Source of the DNA: an uncultured Mycoplasmatota bacterium
GTDB taxonomy: Bacteria; Bacillota_I; Bacilli_A; RF39; UBA660
Reading direction: 5' to 3'
NCBI GenBank assembly: GCA_946490195.1
Contig: CAMLWN010000001.1
Coordinates: 238 to 64,237, forward strand
Length of the DNA stretch: 64,000 bases
Each line of letters starts with the position of its first letter. Within the stretch, counting starts at the first letter, position 1. The translations under genes were made by a program, and so were the position numbers. This document shows, in pieces, positions 26,585 through 55,487 of this stretch. The notes below the pieces were generated by a model that saw only the letters and a list, made by a program, of their open reading frames with translations, was not told the DNA's origin and made no database searches.

Positions 26585-27862
26585 ATGAAACTAGAAAAAT
26601 TTAAACAAAAAGACCCAAAGAAAATAGGCATAACCACATTTACAGTAGTATGTATTCTATTAATCGCTGGCGTATTTTTCTACACTTCATTTGCTTCCTT
26701 TGAAACTCATGACGAATTTAATATCATTGAAGGTACAGTAGGAGACAATGGAGACCTATATTTCTCTTTTTACGTAGATGATGAAATATCAAAGACAATG
26801 CCTCAGAAAGGAGAAGGGTATGTCTTAGATAAAGAAAAAACAAACTGCACCAAAGGAGCAAGTATCGAATTTAATGAAACAGACTGGTCAGTTAAAGTTT
26901 TAAATATGACTGAAACAAGAACAAAATGTACGTTGTATTTCAGAAGACCAACTTTTAGCGATATTATACAAGCATGTAACGATACAGCAGCAAATTGTTT
27001 AAAGGATAATGCCAATCTAAATACAGTAGAGCTTGCTTATGATGAAACAACAGATAATAATCTAAGATATATTGGAGCAAATCCAAATAATTATGTTTTA
27101 CTTAATAATGAATTATGGAGAATCATTGGGGTATTTAATAATATCGATGATGGCACAGAAAATAAAGAGACTAGATTAAAAATCATAAGAGATGAGTCCT
27201 TAGGAGAATACAGTTGGGATTATGATGCGATTGGAAATTACGATAATGATTGGAGTACATCAACGCTTATGAATTTATTAAATTCTGGAGCATATTATAA
27301 TCGAACAACGGGAAGTTATTACAATGGTAGTACAACTGCAACGAACGTTGACTTTAGTTCTAATGGCTTAACAGAAGAAGCAAAGAATATGATAGGAGAT
27401 GCAATATGGAACCTAGGAGGAACAACAAAGTATACAAGTAGTAGTATGGACTAAGCCACTGGTACACATATGAAAGAAACACAGAAGTATATAGTGGAAG
27501 ACCAACAGAGTGGATAGGAAAAATAGGACTTATATATCCAAGTGATTATGGCTATGCAACAAGTGGAGGAAATACAACAGATCGAGAAACATGTCTAAAC
27601 ACTGAACTATATAATTGGGATGATTATGATGATTGTAGAAATAACGACTGGTTATATGATAGCTCTAATGCTCAATGGATACTAACACCTTATTCAAGCG
27701 ATAAGCACAGCATCTTCTATGTATACAATTATGGGAATGTGAATGGCATCGCTGTGAACAGAGCGTCCAGTGTAGTTTTTCCAGCATTATATCTGGTCTC
27801 TAACGTTAAAATAATTAGAGGAGAAGGAACTTCAAGTAATCCATATCAATTAAGTTTATAAA
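26585..27862 (+). pseudogene. frameshifted paralog of the DGR target gene (decayed VR)
   Basis: The first ~330 nt are ~85% identical to 49338... The reading frame breaks near 27440-27480, where small indels occur relative to the intact paralog, and the remainder continues in another frame to 27862. The VR-equivalent region is AT-rich and does not match the TR. Confidence 0.7.
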
Positions 27863-46827: not shown

Positions 46828-48051
46828 GTGCTTTTTATGTTTGAAAGAGAAGCAAAAAAGATTATTGATGAGATTAACAACAATTTTAAAATTTTTTTAG
46901 TGACAGGACCTAGACAAGTAGGAAAAACAACTTTATTATTAAGTCTAAAACCTAAAAATATGGAATATGTTTCGTTAGATGATGAAGTTTTACGTAATCA
47001 AGCAAACAAAGATCCAAAATTATTTTTAGAAGAACATCCCTATCCTTTATTGATTGATGAAGCAGAGTATGCTCCAAATCTTTTTACTTATTTAAAAATG
47101 AAAGTGGATGAAGTAGAAGAATATGGGATGTATTGGTTAACTGGTTCTCAACAATTTCATCTAATGAAAAAAGCATCAGAATCCTTAGCTGGTCGTGTAG
47201 GAATCATTAATTTAAATAGTTTTACGTATTCAGAAATAAAACAAAATACAAATAAAACTTTATTTGATCCAACTGATTTAAAAAAAGCTCCACCAATTGA
47301 AGCAAATGAATTATTTGAAATTATTTATAAAGGTGGAATGCCTGAATTATATAAAAATAAAAATTTAAAAAGAGAATTATACTTTCAAAGTTATATCGAT
47401 ACGTATATTTCTAGAGATGTCAGAGAAATCACTAAAATAGGTAATTTAGAAGCTTTCAAAAAATTCATTGTCAGTGTAGCAAGTAGAACGGGTGAACCGT
47501 TAAACTATACTGCTCTTGCGCTTGATGCAGGAGTAACTGTTCCGACATCAAAGGCGTGGCTATCTATTCTTGTATCATCAGGATTAGTCTATTTACTAGA
47601 ACCTTACTTATCGTCGGAATTAAAAAGACTAACCCATATTCCTAAAATTATCTTTATGGATACAGGTCTCGCATGCTTTTTAGCAGGTTGGGAAAGTGCC
47701 AAAGAATTACAATTAAGTTCCAATGCTGGTCATTATCTAGAAACGTTTATAGTAAGTGAAATCATAAAATCTTATAATGCAAGAGGTATCAAGCCTAACA
47801 TAAGTTATTATCGAGATAAAGAAAAAAATGAAATTGATTTGATTTTATATAAAAACAATACTTTATATCCGTTTGAAATAAAAAAAACAGCTTCTCCTAA
47901 CAAAACAATGATTAAGGATTTTGAAAAATTAAATCAATCTAAAAAAAATATTGGAACAGGTGGGATAATTTGTTTTTATGATAAATTATTAAAGTTAGAT
48001 GAAAAGAATTATATTATTCCAATTTCATCGGTAATTAACATTTCAAAATAA
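46828..48051 (+). CDS. AAA ATPase with C-terminal DUF4143 domain
   Basis: Walker A LVTGPRQVGKTTLL. Typical architecture of the DUF4143 ATPase family. Confidence 0.65.
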   Translation: MLFMFEREAKKIIDEINNNFKIFLVTGPRQVGKTTLLLSLKPKNMEYVSLDDEVLRNQANKDPKLFLEEHPYPLLIDEAEYAPNLFTYLKMKVDEVEEYGMYWLTGSQQFHLMKKASESLAGRVGIINLNSFTYSEIKQNTNKTLFDPTDLKKAPPIEANELFEIIYKGGMPELYKNKNLKRELYFQSYIDTYISRDVREITKIGNLEAFKKFIVSVASRTGEPLNYTALALDAGVTVPTSKAWLSILVSSGLVYLLEPYLSSELKRLTHIPKIIFMDTGLACFLAGWESAKELQLSSNAGHYLETFIVSEIIKSYNARGIKPNISYYRDKEKNEIDLILYKNNTLYPFEIKKTASPNKTMIKDFEKLNQSKKNIGTGGIICFYDKLLKLDEKNYIIPISSVINISK

Positions 48052-49276: not shown

Positions 49277-49309
49277 TTGACAAATGGGGGGGGGGTTGTG
49301 TGATATAAT
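49277..49309 (+). promoter_or_regulatory. promoter of the DGR target gene: -35 TTGACA, 21-bp spacer containing G10 (49286..49295), extended -10 TGaTATAAT
   Basis: Consensus hexamers read directly from the sequence. The homopolymeric G tract makes the spacing 21 bp. Loss of 3-4 G would give an optimal 17-18 bp. Confidence 0.55.
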
Positions 49310-49337
49310 AAAAACATAAATAGAAGGGAATAAAAAA

Positions 49338-50603
49338 ATGAAACTAGAAAAATTTAAACAAAGAGATCCAAAGAAAATAGGAATAACGATATTTACCGTA
49401 GTATGTGTATTACTAGTAGCAGGAGTATTTTTCTACACATCATTTGCATCATTTCAAACTCAACAAGAATTTAATATTATTCATGGTACAGTAGGAAGTA
49501 ATGGAGATCTTTACTTTGCATTTTACGTAGACGATGTTATATCAAAGACAATGCCCCAAAAAGGAGAAGGATATGTTTTAGATAAAGAAAAAACAAATTG
49601 TACAAAGGGAGCAAGTGTCGAATTTAATGAAAACGATTGGTCTGTGAAAGTCTTAAACATGACAGAAACAAGAACAAAATGTACATTGTATTTTGAAAAG
49701 GAACCAACAGCAGCAGATACTATTTTAGCTAAAGGAGAAACAGAAGAGTTAGCCTATGATGGTACAGTTGATAACAATTTAAGATATATCGGAGCAAATC
49801 CAAATAATTATGTATCCTTCAATAATGAATTATGGAGAATCATCGGAGTATTTAATAATATAGATGATGGAACAGGAAAAAAAGAAACGAGATTAAAAAT
49901 CATAAGAGATGAACCTATAGGAAAATATAGTTGGGATAATAAAGCAAGTGGTACTGGATCATCTACTTCATCATCTGGAAGTAATGATTGGAGTGATAGT
50001 ACCCTACAAATCGTATTAAATGAAGGAGCATATTGGAATCGAACAAGTGGAGAATGTCCATATGGGCGAAACGGAGCTACAACGTCTTGCAACTTTAGTG
50101 CTACTGGCTTAACAGAAGAAGCAAAATCTATGATAAGTAATGCCAAATGGAACTTAGGAGGAACAGCAAGTTATACAAGTAGTAGTAATGGATTAGCAAG
50201 TCATTGGTACACATATGAAAGAGGCACAACGGTATATAGTGGAAGACCAACAGAATGGATAGGGAAAATAGGATTAATGTATCCAAGTGACTATGGCTAC
50301 GCAACAGCAGGAGGAAGTACAACAAATAGACAAACATGTCTAAATACTGAGTTATACAATTGGAGTGGTTATGATGATTGTTTCAATAACGACTGGTTAT
50401 ACACAGGATCATATCAATGGACCTTAACTCCCTGTTCCAGTTATGCGCACAGCGTGTTCTTTATGTACAGTCGTGGCGGCGTGAACGTGCTCGCTGCGTA
50501 CAGCACGAATGACGCGGTTTCCCCCGCCTTATATCTAAACTCTAACGTTAAAATAAGTGGAGGAGATGGTTCTTCTAGTTCACCGTTTATTTTAAGTCTA
50601 TAG
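49338..50603 (+). CDS. DGR target protein: membrane-anchored surface protein with C-terminal CLec-like variable domain
   Basis: Signal-anchor. The C-terminal VR (50426..50528) matches the TR except at TR adenines. The VR is GC-rich in an AT-rich gene. Confidence 0.85.
   Translation: MKLEKFKQRDPKKIGITIFTVVCVLLVAGVFFYTSFASFQTQQEFNIIHGTVGSNGDLYFAFYVDDVISKTMPQKGEGYVLDKEKTNCTKGASVEFNENDWSVKVLNMTETRTKCTLYFEKEPTAADTILAKGETEELAYDGTVDNNLRYIGANPNNYVSFNNELWRIIGVFNNIDDGTGKKETRLKIIRDEPIGKYSWDNKASGTGSSTSSSGSNDWSDSTLQIVLNEGAYWNRTSGECPYGRNGATTSCNFSATGLTEEAKSMISNAKWNLGGTASYTSSSNGLASHWYTYERGTTVYSGRPTEWIGKIGLMYPSDYGYATAGGSTTNRQTCLNTELYNWSGYDDCFNNDWLYTGSYQWTLTPCSSYAHSVFFMYSRGGVNVLAAYSTNDAVSPALYLNSNVKISGGDGSSSSPFILSL
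50426..50528 (+). repeat. DGR variable repeat (VR)
   Basis: 103-bp gap-free alignment to the TR. Of 22 mismatches, 20 fall on TR adenines. Aligned VR codons include TTT, TAC, CGT, GGC, CTC, GCT, TAC, AGC and GAC. Confidence 0.85.
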
Positions 50604-50621
50604 GATACCTAAAAATGGGGG

Positions 50622-50647
50622 CCCAGCCACGTGTAAAAGTGGCAGGG
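50622..50647 (+). other. GC-rich hairpin downstream of VR (candidate DGR homing-associated stem-loop)
   Basis: cccagccac-gtgtaaaa-gtggcaggg, a 9-bp stem with one mismatch. It is the only GC-rich non-coding stretch in the vicinity. Confidence 0.4.
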
Positions 50648-50741
50648 GAACGACTTCAGTTATCCACATCAAGATCAAGAAATGTAATAATACCTTTGAG
50701 TTTTTCAAAGTTATTATAAGGTAAATCTGTTATATAAAGGG

Positions 50742-50844
50742 AACTCCCAATTCCAGTAATTCGAACAACGTGTTCAATGTGAACAGTAATGGCAACGTGA
50801 ACGTGAACAATGCGAACAACACGAATAACGCGGATTCCCCCGCC
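50742..50844 (+). repeat. DGR template repeat (TR)
   Basis: Non-coding and rich in AAC/AAT triplets in the frame corresponding to the VR. It is 81/103 identical to the VR. Confidence 0.85.
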
Positions 50845-50937
50845 AGTCCTTATTATGATGAGTAAATATAGTTAAGGCTATATTTGAGAGTGAATAAGGC
50901 CAAGATTTGTCTTTGGTTTACAACCTAAATATACAGT

Positions 50938-51363
50938 ATGGATGGAGAGTATACGTACAAACCTATACACCATACTTTTTTAGAAAGGATAGAGTTTACT
51001 GTGAGTAAATATATTAAGCTTAAAAGAAAAGGAAAATTTTATGAAGTAAAACATGAAGATGATTATATTTTATGGTATTTATTAAGATATAAAATTCATA
51101 ATAATAAAGTAGGTTTTCCAGAAAGTTCTTTATTTAAAGTATTAGATATTTTAAAAGAAAATCAAGTAGGATATCGTTTATCTTTAGATGATGATTTAGG
51201 TTATATAAAAAGTACTACAGAAAATAAATATAAAGAAATTTTAGAAAAAGCTAAAAAAGAATGGATAAAAGAGAAAAAAGAAAAAGATTTATTAGAAAAA
51301 ATAAAAAAAGCTAAACAAGAAGATTTAGAAAAAGTTTTAAGTTATATAGAAAGTGTCTTATGA
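50938..51363 (+). CDS. DGR-associated accessory protein of unknown function (basic, helical C-terminus)
   Basis: ORF between the TR and avd. K/E-rich C-terminus. Confidence 0.4.
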   Translation: MDGEYTYKPIHHTFLERIEFTVSKYIKLKRKGKFYEVKHEDDYILWYLLRYKIHNNKVGFPESSLFKVLDILKENQVGYRLSLDDDLGYIKSTTENKYKEILEKAKKEWIKEKKEKDLLEKIKKAKQEDLEKVLSYIESVL

Positions 51364-51680
51364 AAGAAGAATTAAAAATATTTATTGAAGCAAAATCTTT
51401 TTTAGAAAAAATAACAGAATATAGTATCTATTTTTCAAAAAGAGAAAATATTTTTAAAAATAAAATTATGGAAACTAGTTTTTCTTTTTTAGAAAATTTA
51501 TATATTTATAATTATAAAAAAGAAAAGATAGAAATTTTATTTAAAGATGTAGCTATGTTAAATTATTATATAGAGTATGCTTATAAGAAAAGAATCATTT
51601 CTCATAAAATAAATAATGAATTAACTAATAAACTTTCTTTTATTTTAAGACTACTTTATGGTTTAAAAAATGTTTCTTGA
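51360..51680 (+). CDS. avd: accessory variability determinant (Avd)-like four-helix-bundle protein
   Basis: 106 aa, helical and basic. It ends in LSFILRLLYGL, which resembles the bAvd C-terminus (IAEVGRILG). It lies immediately upstream of the RT. Confidence 0.55.
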   Translation: MKEELKIFIEAKSFLEKITEYSIYFSKRENIFKNKIMETSFSFLENLYIYNYKKEKIEILFKDVAMLNYYIEYAYKKRIISHKINNELTNKLSFILRLLYGLKNVS

Positions 51681-51740
51681 ATTGTTACATATTTATAAAA
51701 AGAAATCAGAAAAAATACAAAAAATAAAAGAAAAGTTTAT

Positions 51741-52721
51741 TTGTTTGAAATATATAAAATGAGTTATATAAAAGAAATTGAAAATATTTTAGAAAGTAGT
51801 TATACATATAGTTGTAAATATCAAATCTTTTTAATTTTTGAACCTAAAGTAAGAGTAGTAATGAGTTTACCTATTAAAGATAAAGTATTAAATCATTATG
51901 TTACTAGATATATATTGATACCTAAATTGAAAAAATATTTAGATGAAAGAAATGTCGCGACTAGAAAAGATATGGGAGTAGGGTTAGCTAGAAAACTTTT
52001 TAAAAAATATTTGTGTAAAATGAAAAATAAAAATTTTTATATTTTAAAAATGGATATAGAAAAATACTTTTATCGTATAGATCATGAAGTATTAAAGAGG
52101 TTGTTAAAAGACAAATTAAGCGAAAAAGAATTTACTTTAATAAAAGATATTATAGATAGTACAAACAGGGAATATATTCATAAGAAAATTGAATTTTTAG
52201 AAAAGAAATATGGGATAGAGTTACCTAAATATGAGTATGGAAAAGGGTTACCTATAGGGAATATGACAAGTCAATTTTTAAGTGTTTTTTATTTATATAA
52301 ATTAGATCACAAAATCATCCATGATTATCATTTGAAATACTATATGAAATATATGGATGATTTTGTGATACTTCATGAAAATAAACAGTATTTAGAAAAC
52401 ATATTTTTAAAAATAAAAGAAGAATTAGAAACAGTATATAAATTAAAAATAAATAAAAAGAAAAGTTTAATTGTAAATAGTAAAGAAGGGATTACTTTTT
52501 TAGGAATTCATTATAAAATAAAAAAGAATAAAATAGTTGAGTTTTTACCAAATAAAAAGAAACAAGCAATAAGAAAGAAAATCAAGAAAAATTTTTTTGA
52601 ATTTAAGAATAATATGAAAAATATTGAAAGTTTATTTAGTAGTAGAGAATGCTTTTTACATAGTTATAAAGTGAGTAGAAAGTATATAAAAGAATTAATT
52701 TATGAAATGGAAAAGAATTGA
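51741..52721 (+). CDS. DGR reverse transcriptase
   Basis: RT motifs 1-5 are present: PIKDKVLNHYV, LKMDIEKYFYRIDH, GLPIGNMTSQF (the DGR-specific SQ motif) and YMDDFVIL. Size (326 aa) is similar to the Bordetella phage bRT. Confidence 0.9.
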   Translation: MFEIYKMSYIKEIENILESSYTYSCKYQIFLIFEPKVRVVMSLPIKDKVLNHYVTRYILIPKLKKYLDERNVATRKDMGVGLARKLFKKYLCKMKNKNFYILKMDIEKYFYRIDHEVLKRLLKDKLSEKEFTLIKDIIDSTNREYIHKKIEFLEKKYGIELPKYEYGKGLPIGNMTSQFLSVFYLYKLDHKIIHDYHLKYYMKYMDDFVILHENKQYLENIFLKIKEELETVYKLKINKKKSLIVNSKEGITFLGIHYKIKKNKIVEFLPNKKKQAIRKKIKKNFFEFKNNMKNIESLFSSRECFLHSYKVSRKYIKELIYEMEKN

Positions 52722-52974
52722 ATATCTAGAAAAATATTATTATGATAGTGTGATTTTATTTTTAGAAAAAAATAAATTGATAAGTTATGATGAAATATTC
52801 TATTTTTTTAAAACAAAAGAAGAGTTAGAAAAATATCAAATTTCTTATATAATTATTGAAAATTTAAAAATTATTCATTTTACTTTTTATAAAGAAAATC
52901 AATATTTTCTTTATAAAAATCTATTTTATTTATTAAAAAAGGAAAATGAAGTTTTCTTGGGAATATATAAGTAG
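52702..52974 (+). CDS. small hypothetical protein overlapping RT 3' end
   Basis: 90-aa ORF with no motif. Confidence 0.3.
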   Translation: MKWKRIEYLEKYYYDSVILFLEKNKLISYDEIFYFFKTKEELEKYQISYIIIENLKIIHFTFYKENQYFLYKNLFYLLKKENEVFLGIYK

Positions 52975-52986
52975 GAGGAAAACTTT

Positions 52987-53850
52987 ATGAATGAAATTGT
53001 AGAAGAATTAAAAATAGAAAAAATGATTTATGAAATAAGAGGAAAACAAGTGATGCTAGATAGTGATTTAGCTAAACTTTATCAAGTAGAAACAAAAAGA
53101 ATAAATGAAGCTGTAAGCAGGAATAAAGAAAAATTTCCTGTTAGATTTAGTTTCACAATTAGTGAGAAAGAATATAATCTTTTGAAGTCGCAAATTGCGA
53201 CTTCAAAAGGAGGCTCGAGAAAAGGTCATAGAGTGTTTACAGAACAAGGAGTAGCAATGCTAGCAACTATTTTAAAATCGAAAATTGCAACAGAAGTAAG
53301 CATTAGAATTATGGATGCCTTTGTAGCTATGAGAAAATATATTGGAAATAACTTGATTGAACAAAGATATATTAATCATTTAGTTATTGAACATGAAGAT
53401 AAGATTAAACTTTTAGAAACCAGTTTTGAAAAATTAGAAACAAAGAAAAATGAAATTTACTTTAATGGACAAATTTATGATGCCTATTCAAAGATTTTAG
53501 ATATATTAAGTGAAGCAAAAGAAGAAATTATAATCATTGATGGCTATGCAGATAAAAGTGTATTAGATATGATACGAAATACAGAAGTGAAAGTAATCTT
53601 AATTATTAAAAACTGTGGGAATTTAAAAGAGCAAGATATTTTAAAATATCAAGAACAATACAATAATTTAAATATTATTTATGATACTTCTTTTCATGAC
53701 AGATATATCATTTTAGATAAAAAAGTATTTTATCATTGTGGAGCTTCATTAAATCATGCTGGAAGTAAAACTTTTTCTATAAATACATTAGAAGATGAAA
53801 TGGTTCAAAAACTTTTAATAGATAAGATAGGAGAATTAGAATATGAATGA
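52987..53850 (+). CDS. ORF6N-domain protein with C-terminal HDRYIILD/ASLNHAG domain (copy A, intact)
   Basis: IRGKQVMLDSDLAKLYQVETKRINEAV...RVFTEQGVAMLATILKS is the ORF6N signature. The C-terminal domain contains FHDRYIILDKK...YHCGASLNHAGSK. Confidence 0.7.
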   Translation: MNEIVEELKIEKMIYEIRGKQVMLDSDLAKLYQVETKRINEAVSRNKEKFPVRFSFTISEKEYNLLKSQIATSKGGSRKGHRVFTEQGVAMLATILKSKIATEVSIRIMDAFVAMRKYIGNNLIEQRYINHLVIEHEDKIKLLETSFEKLETKKNEIYFNGQIYDAYSKILDILSEAKEEIIIIDGYADKSVLDMIRNTEVKVILIIKNCGNLKEQDILKYQEQYNNLNIIYDTSFHDRYIILDKKVFYHCGASLNHAGSKTFSINTLEDEMVQKLLIDKIGELEYE

Positions 53851-54358
53851 AATTGTAGAAGAGTTAAAAATAGAAAAGATGATTTATGAAATAAGAGGAA
53901 AGCAAGTGATGTTAGATAGTGATTTAGCTAAACTTTATCAAGTAGAAACAAAAAGAATAAATGAAGCTGTAAAAAATAATTTAGAAAAATTTCCATCACG
54001 TTTTTGTTTCATCCTAGACCAAGAAGAAATGTTTTTTTTGAAGTCGAAATTTTCGACCTCAAATACAAAGCAACGTGGTGGACGTAGGTATAATATAAGA
54101 GTTTTTACAGAGCAAGGAGTAGCAATGCTAGCAACTATTTTAAAATCCAAAATCGCAACAGAAGTAAGCATTCGAATTATGGATGCCTTTGTAGCTATGA
54201 GAAAATATATTGGAAATAACTTGATTGAACAAAGATATATTAATCATTTAGTTATTGAACATGAAGATAAGATTAAACTTTTAGAAACTAGTTTTGAAAA
54301 ATTAGAAACAAAAAGAATAAATGAAACTGTAAAAAATAATTTAGAAAAATTTCCTTAA
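53843..54358 (+). pseudogene. ORF6N gene copy B, truncated by internal deletion/recombination
   Basis: N-terminal ORF6N domain intact. After LETK the frame jumps back to the N-terminal sequence RINETVKNNLEKFP and stops. Microhomology at the junction is gaaacaaa.agaataaatgaa. Confidence 0.55.
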
Positions 54359-54400
54359 AGATTTTCTTGGAAATTAACGGATGAAGAAAGCAAAGTTTTT

Positions 54401-54625
54401 TTGGTCGAAATTTTCGACCAAAAAATAGAACGACGTGGTGGAAGATATAAAGAGCCTAGAGTTTTTACAGAGCAAGGAGTAGCAATGCTAGCAACTGTTT
54501 TAAGAACTAATGCAGCAGAAGAAGAAATCATAATCATTGATAGCTATGCATATAAAAAGCGTTTTATCGATGAAATAGTTAAAAATCTTTTAATAAATAA
54601 GATAGGAGAATTACAAAATGAATGA
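54401..54625 (+). pseudogene. ORF6N gene fragment C (central + C-terminal remnant)
   Basis: Encodes RRGGRYKEPRVFTEQGVAMLATVL, then jumps to EEEIIIIDSYAY...KIGELQNE. Confidence 0.5.
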
Positions 54626-55487
54626 AATTGTAGAAGAGTTAAAAATAGAAAAGATGATTTATGAAGTAAGAGGAAAACAAGTGATGCTAGATAGTGATTT
54701 AGCTAAACTTTATCAGGTAGAAACAAAAAGAATAAATGAAGCTGTAAAAAATAATTTAGAAAAATTTCCTGAAAGATTTTCTTGGAAATTAACAGACGAA
54801 GAAGTAAAAGGTTTTTTAGTCAAAAATTTTGACCGAAAAATAGAACGACGTGGTGGAAGATATAAAGAGCCTAGAGTTTTTACAGAACAAGGTGTAGCAA
54901 TGCTAGCAACTATTTTAAAATCGAAAATTGCAACAGAAGTAAGCATTCGAATTATGGATGCCTTTGTAGCTATGAGAAAATATATTGGAAATAACTTGAT
55001 TGAACAAAGATATATTAATCATTTAGTTATTGAACATGAAGATAAGATTAAACTTTTAGAAAATAGTTTTGAAAAGTTAGAAACAAAGAAAAATGAAATT
55101 TATTTTAATGGACAAATTTATGATGCCTATTCAAAGATTTTAAATATATTAAGTGAAGCAAAAGAAGAAATTATAATCATTGATGGTTATGCAGATAAAA
55201 GTGTTTTAGATATGATACGAAATACGAAAGTGAAAGTAATCTTAATCATTAAAAACTGTGGGAATTTAAAAGAGCAAGATATTTTAAAATATCAAGAACA
55301 ATACAATAATTTACATCTTATTTATGATACTTCTTTTCATGACAGATATATCATTTTAGATAAAAAAATATTCTATCACTGTGGAGCTTCATTAAATCAT
55401 GCAGGAAGTAAAACTTTTTCTATAAATACATTAGAAGATGAAATGGTAAAAAACAGTCTTTTAGAAAAACTTGCAAAAATCACTTGA
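54618..55487 (+). CDS. ORF6N-domain protein, copy D (intact)
   Basis: Full-length paralog of copy A (289 aa). Confidence 0.7.
   Translation: MNEIVEELKIEKMIYEVRGKQVMLDSDLAKLYQVETKRINEAVKNNLEKFPERFSWKLTDEEVKGFLVKNFDRKIERRGGRYKEPRVFTEQGVAMLATILKSKIATEVSIRIMDAFVAMRKYIGNNLIEQRYINHLVIEHEDKIKLLENSFEKLETKKNEIYFNGQIYDAYSKILNILSEAKEEIIIIDGYADKSVLDMIRNTKVKVILIIKNCGNLKEQDILKYQEQYNNLHLIYDTSFHDRYIILDKKIFYHCGASLNHAGSKTFSINTLEDEMVKNSLLEKLAKIT

Follow-up and report, generated by a model that had tools for sequence, protein, structure and literature searches.

The 64,000-nucleotide stretch analyzed here (the window; positions 238 to 64,237 of contig CAMLWN010000001.1, assembly GCA_946490195.1, from an uncultured Mycoplasmatota bacterium) very probably carries a chromosomal diversity-generating retroelement (DGR) of the architecture that contains a MutS-domain-I-like (MSL) gene, in a copy whose reverse transcriptase (RT) gene is frameshifted as assembled and which has most likely been disabled only recently. 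The signature of the element is a pair of direct repeats, a variable region (VR) inside a target gene and an intergenic template region (TR), whose differences lie almost entirely on TR adenines. The cassette is arranged in the order target(VR)-TR-MSL-avd-RT-miniMSL, where mini-MSL denotes a shortened second MSL gene, and its principal parts are as follows.

49338..50603, + strand: target (variable-protein) gene, 421 aa, with an N-terminal anchor or signal, a beta-rich region and a predicted C-type-lectin-like domain ending in the VR
50426..50528, + strand: VR, 103 nt, codons 364-397 of the target
50742..50844, + strand: TR, intergenic between target and MSL, with 36 adenines and 15 AAC/AAT codons in the VR frame
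51001..51363, + strand: probable MSL gene, ~120 aa from GTG 51001, with a GKFYE motif
51360..51680, + strand: avd, 106 aa, isoelectric point (pI) 9.4, predicted four-helix bundle, stop codon overlapping the RT start
51670..52721, + strand: RT gene, ATG 51670 overlapping the avd stop; open part 51741-52721, 326 codons
52702..52974, + strand: mini-MSL, truncated MSL paralogue, 90 aa, overlapping the RT stop by 20 nt

On realignment the VR and TR proved to lie exactly where the original prediction had put them, in a gapless alignment of 103 nt with 22 mismatches, 20 of which fall on TR adenines (A>T 8, A>G 8, A>C 4). With 36 adenines in a 103-nt TR, the hypergeometric probability that 20 or more of the 22 mismatches would fall on A is 1.1e-9, so that the adenine bias on which the prediction was built is upheld. 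The two remaining mismatches are TR 50761 T / VR 50445 G and TR 50779 G / VR 50463 A. An independent repeat search returned the same pair as the largest direct repeat. Read in the VR frame, 15 of the 34 TR codons are AAC or AAT, an enrichment that had also been noted, and 20 of the 34 contain an A, which corresponds to ~10^20 possible peptides. The VR product, residues 364-397 of the 421-aa open reading frame (ORF), is in frame and near the 3' end of the gene. Both repeats end in the GC-rich TCCCCCGCC (50520-50528 in the VR), in a window of 30% GC, and the homology stops immediately after it; by its sequence this end resembles an initiation of mutagenic homing (IMH) site. Only one VR matches this TR, with no further VR in the 64-kb window. 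A segment at 27684 that was considered as a second VR was rejected, as its 63% match at non-A TR positions reflects ordinary paralogy within a split paralogue gene.

The open part of the RT gene contains the GLPIGNMTSQF (IGNMTSQ) and YMDDF motifs, as predicted, and matches Pfam RVT_1; the start at 51741 did not stand, the true start being ATG 51670. Among solved structures the single sequence comes closest to the Bordetella phage bRT (8ub7, E 1.6e-15); when 38 clade members were combined in a profile, bRT scored 108 bits (E 2.9e-30), compared with 59 bits (E 2.8e-15) for the next structure, a group II maturase. The expectation that profile searches would return a DGR-type enzyme was thus realized in the match to bRT but not in the NCBIfam scan, whose matches included no DGR RT model and consisted of TIGR04416 (group_II_RT_mat, 77 bits against a cut-off of 300), Drt3a (58 against 200) and retron St85 (50 against 235). 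For comparison we assembled a set of 101 loci, made up of the window region and 100 loci fetched via RT or target homologues (most of them RT-homologue loci; numbered with the prefix L), and we counted a TR/VR pair as A-biased if at least 70% of its mismatches lay on adenines, on the RT strand. Such pairs are present in 43 of the 101 loci, and this linkage is the strongest evidence on which, judging from sequence, we assign the RT to the DGR clade.

The RT gene cannot be read through in the assembly. The closest intact homologues are 350 aa long, not 326, with the N-terminus MFLELLxIYEKEIRKNTKNKRKVYLFEIYKM..., and translation and alignment with intact sequences (P0001, P0002, P0004, L007 and L021) place a frame break at RT codon 10, where one G has been lost between 51696 and 51697 (TATGAAAAAG in L007 and L021, TATAAAAAG in the window). 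With the frame from ATG 51670 broken in this way, the element is not complete as assembled, and the claim that it is complete has to be withdrawn. TTG 51741 is the first start codon past the frameshift, and an ORF beginning there is without 24 N-terminal residues. The lost stretch contains an E, K, N and K that are conserved at no less than 90% in the clade; it corresponds to profile positions 1-29 and, with an offset in the alignment, to approximately residues 9-37 of bRT, which lie within the N-terminal extension of that enzyme. In the electron cryomicroscopy (cryo-EM) structure of the BPP-1 complex, the N-terminal extension of bRT contacts two Avd protomers and, via Lys29, a template phosphate (bioRxiv 10.1101/2023.10.23.563531). 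Of 89 RT ORFs in which this could be assessed, 71 extend to the N-terminus.

Three independent lesions occur in this same A-rich 5' stretch of the RT gene, with the remaining ORF open in each case: the window (51670-51740), L001 (2350-2430) and L053 (3900-3990). In L001-L006 the lesion is a GAA>TAA change at RT codon 12, two codons beyond the lesion in the window, and the protein is found on 8 contigs, most of them from different samples; in L053 it is a frameshift. Either a hot spot of mutation or an off-switch used repeatedly could explain this.

Comparison of lineages indicates how such elements behave. In the window, L007, L001 and L010, each VR tracks its own TR at non-A positions, although the TRs have diverged there, and templated transfer therefore went on after the lineages split. 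L007 and L021, with 97% identity across 3.2 kb, both have an intact RT and the same 99-nt TR; 21 positions distinguish their VRs, and 20 of these are TR adenines. Polymorphism confined to TR adenines, which had been anticipated for population reads, is thus seen between these two sister strains, and the element type is therefore active in nature. The VRs of L010, L011 and L012, from three samples, are identical. Over 66 target homologues the hypervariable columns coincide with the TR AAC/AAT codons and are set in a fixed scaffold, WTLTP.SS.S..VF.V.S.G.V....A.....VSPALYL, in which the two non-A mismatches of the window alter nearly invariant residues (S370A and V376M). These two changes are compatible with some drift after loss of the RT, though they are too few to prove it. 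The number of non-A mismatches was tried as a marker of RT disruption and set aside, the counts being small and giving no clean separation.

The repeat pair is embedded in a structured RNA. Together with the mini-MSL, this element on the 3' side of the TR and a long-range duplex that brackets the TR extend the cassette beyond what the earlier reading had recognized. The structural elements are listed here.

50718..50729, + strand: upstream duplex arm AAGGTAAATCTG, just 5' of the TR, pairing with 50902-50913
50846..50983, + strand: structured RNA 3' of the TR (Sp-like), ~135 nt, covarying
50846-50854, + strand: segment pairing with 50893-50901, second duplex
50863-50886, + strand: P1 hairpin
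50902-50913, + strand: downstream arm, partner of 50718-50729
50915-50925, + strand: P2, followed by UAAAU
50935-50941 with 50970-50976, + strand: P3, enclosing a UACG-capped hairpin
50622..50647, + strand: post-target hairpin, CCCAGCCAC / GTGGCAGGG closed by an 8-nt loop, just beyond the stop codon of the target

The ~150 nt 3' of the TR are more conserved than the coding sequence. RNAalifold applied to 16 loci gave five helices with 27 pairs in all, and 25 of these pairs show compensatory changes. The element pairs in 90.9% of cells, as against 64% in shuffles and 41-48% in slid controls, and none of 500 shuffles reached the observed value; over 39 distinct sequences, 95% of cells are paired. 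With a covariance model, R1, a single copy is found in each of 42 sources, made up of the window and 41 loci; without exception it lies next to the TR and on the RT strand, and the window match at 50848-50983 scores 113.9 bits. In 38 of 39 distinct loci (the exception being without upstream sequence) the long-range duplex has a run of 10-12 contiguous pairs, where shuffled controls give a mean run of 6.6; its sequence covaries in many variants, and the upstream arm lies just 5' of the TR in every case. Support for the second duplex, 50846-50854 with 50893-50901, is weaker than for the long-range one. Rfam returned no family at the gathering score on the whole window, nor any at E<=1 on 50500-51100. 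By analogy with BPP-1, we read this RNA as a clade-specific version of the known DGR RNA design. In a sister sub-clade (L022, L023, L025-L027, L043, L045, L054 and L075) the order is MSL-avd-RT-TR-RNA element-miniMSL-target; the TR and the 3' RNA element have moved there as one unit, with the mini-MSL directly downstream.

The post-target hairpin, which folds at ~-7.5 kcal/mol as DNA, begins 93 nt after the VR. Its stem covaries, being GCCAC/GTGGC in the window, GTCAC/GTGAC in L001, L010 and L019, and GCCGC/GCGGC in L018, and analogous hairpins are present in L014 and L015. Since it also follows the stand-alone target gene of L018, the hairpin goes with the target and not with the TR. There is no hairpin within 34 bp of the VR, where the sequence codes for the conserved C-terminus of the target. 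In BPP-1 the corresponding type of hairpin has a GC-rich stem and a GRNA tetraloop and lies 4-34 bp downstream of the VR (PMC3240598), in contrast to the greater distance and 8-nt loop seen here; the post-target hairpin may be its counterpart.

Three accessory genes accompany the RT. The first lies within a 141-aa ORF that opens at ATG 50938, and several observations place its start further in. The ORF has 243 relatives of ~120 aa, most of which align only from query residue 22-26 on; in L001 and L010 the codon corresponding to GTG 51001 is ATG; and the first 21 codons coincide with the conserved RNA element. For these reasons the real MSL gene is probably 51001-51363, and ATG 50938 is probably not the true start. 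From its sequence, we identify the product as an MSL protein and GKFYE as a mismatch-binding-type motif: 30 of 52 MSL homologues match Pfam MutS_I (PF01624; best E 3e-9), though the window copy itself has no direct match to this family, and an MSL profile gave a marginal match in the PDB, with MSH6 at E 0.18 among kinases. MSL homologues are present in 62 of the 101 loci. MSL is one of the four DGR accessory classes described by Wu et al. 2018 (PMC5758913), and Msl has also been reported in Bacteroides DGRs (bioRxiv 10.1101/2024.11.15.621889).

For the 106-aa ORF that follows, the predicted Avd-like character is established by fold comparison only. The window copy scores E 6e-4 and 20 bits against NCBIfam DivGenRetAVD (NF033474; cut-off 80) and has no Pfam match, and its L001 orthologue reaches E 4e-7 and 30 bits against the same model and E 6e-6 and 27 bits against Pfam bAvd (PF22296; cut-off 40), which is matched by two of ten members of the family. 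The proposed check with hidden Markov models (HMMs) thus gave matches to Avd models, all of them below the curated cut-offs. Neither the single sequence nor a 10-sequence profile found an Avd chain in the PDB. The AlphaFold2 (AF2) model, however, has a mean confidence (pLDDT) of 91.8, and its top 22 PDB matches are all of the Avd / S23-IVS family (2gsc, 2rld, 8ub7 chains B-E, 4dwl) at TM 0.75-0.88, followed by a sharp drop to unrelated bundles at TM <=0.66. On the strength of this model, we assign the Avd fold to the protein.

The mini-MSL belongs to a family of 77-97 aa proteins. In 28 loci the gene begins 7-19 nt ahead of the RT stop, and in ~12 further loci it lies 225-270 nt downstream of the RT stop, after the TR. 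The family was collected by iterative HMM search at 1e-6 (a threshold of E 1e-3 drifted, giving 99 matches) and checked by position and with hhalign. Aligned by hhalign to the MSL profile, it gives 97% probability (E 1.2e-10) and a collinear match with a 21-residue internal deletion, whereas the negative control, an equally AT-rich Avd profile, gives 0.25%. The mini-MSL has no match in Pfam, NCBIfam or PHROG. In three loci the position after the RT is occupied by a full-length MSL. We found no description of a second, internally deleted MSL-like gene in the papers that we consulted.

The target protein was predicted to be an anchored surface protein with a C-type-lectin-like C-terminus, and both parts of this description agree with the modeled structure. 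Its N-terminus, KKIGITIFTVVCVLLVAGVFFYTSFASF, is hydrophobic at approximately residues 14-36, and the model places a helix at 11-34, as would fit a signal anchor or a long signal peptide; the protein has no sortase motif. The best structural match is the N-terminal domain of the Thomasclavelia ramosa IgA peptidase (IgAse; PDB 9qa6), with 198 residues superposed at 2.8 A and 23% identity, and this relative points to an Erysipelotrichales-like host. Support for a CTLD fold (that of C-type-lectin-like domains) bearing the VR is therefore at the level of the predicted fold, with no sequence-profile match to solved structures: a profile of 66 target homologues found no PDB sequence, IgAse included, and the target has no match in Pfam or NCBIfam and one weak match, of unknown function, in PHROGs.

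The target family is very large (~8000 matches, mostly in assembled metagenomes), and its members are scattered among housekeeping genes, some of them stand-alone. Two such stand-alone genes, L017 and L018, end in TCCCCCGCC, with the post-target hairpin present in L018 and absent in L017; they may be acted on in trans. L019 (5800-6280) and L020 retain the target, hairpin, TR and 3' RNA element and have no MSL, avd or RT genes; theirs is a decayed or split cassette. Within the window, a target paralogue at 26585-27858 (~70% amino acid identity) is split into ORFs 26585-27454 and 27454-27858. Its C-terminal region agrees with the TR at only 63% of the non-A positions and is without the GC-rich end, the hairpin and the G tract, and it is probably a non-targeted pseudogene.

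The G tract just mentioned lies upstream of the target gene, in a region whose layout, as read from the sequence, suggests a promoter.

49277..49309, + strand: promoter-like region of the target, with TTGACA at 49277-49282, G10 at 49286-49295 and an extended -10, TGATATAAT, at 49301-49309

This arrangement of TTGACA, G tract and -10 is kept upstream in seven of the eight closest target genes (including L007, L010, L018, L019, L020 and L021), with a hexamer spacing of 20-22 nt. A promoter and terminator scan was uninformative in this AT-rich region, giving fewer promoter-like sites than shuffles. The tract itself occurs as G10, G11, GGAGGGGGGG and GGGAGGGGGG, and L019 and L020, one gene from two samples, differ as G11 versus G10. 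Slipped-strand phase variation of target expression at this tract could be superimposed on DGR variation.

The surroundings of the cassette are chromosomal. Its neighbors encode a P-type ATPase, an AAA_14/DUF4143 ATPase, CotJB, CotJC (Mn catalase), three ORF6N paralogues, MerR and a SpoU methylase. L010 and L011 have this five-gene cassette between pnp and a VCA0040-like gene, with rpsO as a further neighbor in L010. The recurrence of one cassette amid differing neighbors marks it as a conserved, chromosomal unit. A syntenic locus of 89% identity is present in a metagenome-assembled genome (MAG) labelled 'uncultured Bacilli bacterium', and related RT loci come largely from human gut samples. 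The gene order target-TR-accessory-avd-RT had been read correctly, with the 141-aa and 106-aa ORFs at the sites proposed; the position of the TR upstream of both accessory genes likewise stands, but it is only mildly unusual, MSL cassettes being a described architecture class (PMC5758913). GC content is 58% in the VR, 36% in the target gene, 30% in the window and 16-21% in the MSL, avd, RT and mini-MSL genes (50938-52974), a difference between enzyme module and target that suggests different origins or different constraints. No tRNA genes are present in the window. Genetic code 4 (TGA as Trp), raised by the low GC content, was rejected in view of long ORFs under code 11, stops shared with homologues and the presence of sporulation genes.

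Directly 3' of the cassette, at 52987-55487, are the three ORF6N paralogues (287, 171 and 289 aa) in tandem, with near-identical N-termini and partial copies between them; the syntenic MAG contig, L008, has a shorter array. The AAA_14/DUF4143 ATPase gene (46828-48051) is 1.3 kb upstream of the target, and in the more distant loci L015 (2648-3850) and L016 (1698-2900) a gene of this family stands directly 3' of the mini-MSL. Its recurrence near DGR loci may be coincidence.

The alternative that deserves most weight, although we consider it the less probable reading, is that the element is fully active, with the frameshift either an assembly or sequencing error or bypassed, through a -1 slip on AAA AAG or through translation that starts internally at TTG 51741 or ATG 51759. 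The one-base deletion could be either a real lesion or an assembly error. A functional RT would account for an ORF that is intact beyond the lesion and 94% identical to intact homologues and for a VR that is heavily diversified and in frame, and a -1 shift at 51697-51702 would restore the length and sequence of the homologous RTs. The nonsense lineage of L001, spread over its 8 contigs and otherwise with an open ORF, gives a hint that lesions at the N-terminus can be tolerated or reversed. On the other hand, the missing base is a G ahead of an A5 run and not a change in homopolymer length; 71 RT ORFs extend to the N-terminus, the lost stretch has an E, K, N and K at a conservation of at least 90%, and the N-terminal extension of bRT touches both Avd and template; and the two non-A VR/TR mismatches fall at scaffold positions. 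We therefore favor a recently disabled copy whose VR records past activity, while recognizing several points that weigh against this interpretation. Both the deletion and the VR of this population were read from the assembly sequence; the 326 remaining RT codons are free of further lesions, unlike what long-standing decay would leave; the AAA AAG at the break is a site where a -1 slip would yield full-length RT; non-A mismatch counts separate RT-intact loci (0-1) poorly from RT-disrupted ones (2); the HMM scores of Avd fall under the curated cut-offs; and the roles of the MSL, the mini-MSL and the post-target hairpin, together with the details of priming, are ones that we infer.

Other explanations dispute the nature of the element itself. 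A phage-borne DGR for tropism switching, with a phage receptor-binding protein as its target, would be in keeping with the three genes for ORF6N, a domain common in prophages, that follow the cassette, with a cassette GC content (16-21%) below that of the surroundings and with the one weak PHROG match of the target. We regard it as very improbable, because the neighbors are housekeeping and sporulation genes (pnp and rpsO in L010), no phage structural genes were seen near the cassette, RT matches in a phage collection are all below 35% identity, and the target carries a membrane anchor or signal at its N-terminus and comes from a large chromosomal paralogue family among housekeeping genes. Still further from the evidence is the idea that VR and TR arose by ordinary duplication of a segment and then diverged, through mutation or gene conversion, beside an unrelated RT. 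The mere existence of a repeat, and a target family with many paralogues (including the pseudogene at 26585-27858), is all that would recommend it, and it is already refuted by the adenine bias (P 1e-9). Moreover, the VR frame is preserved in the TR, with 15 AAC/AAT codons, even though the TR is non-coding, the same A-biased pattern recurs in 43 loci of the RT clade, sister strains differ almost only at TR adenines, and the true paralogue at 26585-27858 agrees with the TR at a mere 63% of non-A positions and is without the GC-rich end. We give equally little credence to a group II intron, retron or defence (DRT/Abi) RT that happens to lie near a repeat. The best NCBIfam matches of the RT are indeed group_II_RT_mat, Drt3a and retron St85, but all are far below their cut-offs, and against them stand the profile scores for bRT over group II maturase (108 versus 59 bits), the IGNxxSQ motif, the tight linkage of the RT clade to TR/VR pairs, Avd and MSL, and the finding of no intron RNA, retron msr/msd or other Rfam match in Rfam scans of the window.

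For a DGR with an intact RT, these parts suggest the following course of events. By analogy with BPP-1, a transcript would cover the TR and its flanks. The duplexes 50718-50729/50902-50913 and 50846-50854/50893-50901 would then bracket the TR, and the multi-hairpin 3' element would presumably dock the RT-Avd complex. The RT would copy the TR into cDNA, misincorporating opposite adenines, and the cDNA would replace the VR at 50426-50528, with a 3' boundary at the shared TCCCCCGCC. As an outcome, up to 20 codons could be recoded on the lectin-like tip of a surface-anchored protein. Host MutS suppresses retrohoming 5-10 fold in Bacteroides, and the MSL and mini-MSL, each consisting of a MutS-domain-I-like module and nothing else, may handle or shield the mismatch-rich cDNA:VR heteroduplex. 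It is tempting to join these ideas into a scheme in which MSL and mini-MSL act as decoys or clamps against host MutS, the poly-G tract switches the target on and off, and the RT 5' end is a recurrent hypermutation on/off site. Such three-layer control, not previously described, strikes us as unlikely.

One of the closest known systems is the DGR of Bordetella phage BPP-1, the prototype, with which the window element shares adenine-specific TR-to-VR transfer into the 3' end of a gene for a C-type-lectin-fold protein, a GC-rich 3' boundary common to both repeats, an Avd four-helix-bundle partner, and an RT with IGxxxSQ and YMDD. The likeness extends to the RNA. In the BPP-1 ribonucleoprotein (RNP), and by prediction in 207 other DGRs, the downstream RNA forms two neighboring duplexes, Sp:TR with the TR 3' end and Sp:avd with an upstream segment, and the layout also includes a stem-loop directly after the TR, another that is followed by adenosines, and a UNCG-capped hairpin (bioRxiv 10.1101/2023.10.23.563531); in the window, too, RNA brackets the TR, with two adjacent duplexes involving the downstream, Sp-like segment and stem-loops after the TR. 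BPP-1, however, is phage-borne with the order mtd-avd-TR-brt, whereas the window element is chromosomal with the order target-TR-MSL-avd-RT-miniMSL, and the 5' flank of its TR is intergenic where that of BPP-1 is avd coding sequence. The window also has two extra MutS-I-like genes, and its RT is only ~25-30% identical to that of BPP-1 and is frameshifted.

Also close are the DGRs that contain an MSL gene, namely 'Architecture D' (Wu et al. 2018, PMC5758913) and, in Bacteroides, the Bfr/Bth/Bun DGRs (bioRxiv 10.1101/2024.11.15.621889), which likewise combine avd with a small MutS-domain-I-like gene, the window MSL being ~120 aa and keeping the FYE motif. To this class the window clade adds a second MSL paralogue, 77-97 aa, internally deleted and overlapping the RT stop. 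The MSL of the window is also basic (pI ~9, compared with a reported mean of 7.2 for MSL), and the hosts of the clade are low-GC Bacilli instead of Bacteroides or Legionella. Among the closest known systems are also Treponema denticola TvpA and Thermus TaqVP, which are solved chromosomal DGR variable proteins. The IgAse domain of T. ramosa has, like the target, an enlarged CTLD-like alpha/beta fold, but it is N-terminal, undiversified and dispensable for catalysis (PMC12237041), whereas the target domain is C-terminal and contains the VR.

The DGR type and the MSL class are already known, and this locus adds another example, one that should not be called complete in the assembly as given, with its RT gene broken. 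To our knowledge, DGRs are the only known system of targeted protein hypermutation in prokaryotes, and they are densest in the human gut. The locus provides a well-dissected DGR from poorly studied, uncultured low-GC Bacilli, and we expect its specialist interest to lie in the second MutS-I-like gene, the RNA architecture, the IgAse-like lectin scaffold and the conserved poly-G tract. The covariation-supported RNA model of the clade independently supports the generality of the RNA architecture seen by cryo-EM in BPP-1, and the second MutS-I-like gene is a candidate for a role against mismatch repair. The likeness of the lectin-like domain to its closest solved relative, the N-terminal domain of an IgA protease from a gut commensal, points to host- or glycan-facing ligands for the diversified surface of the target.

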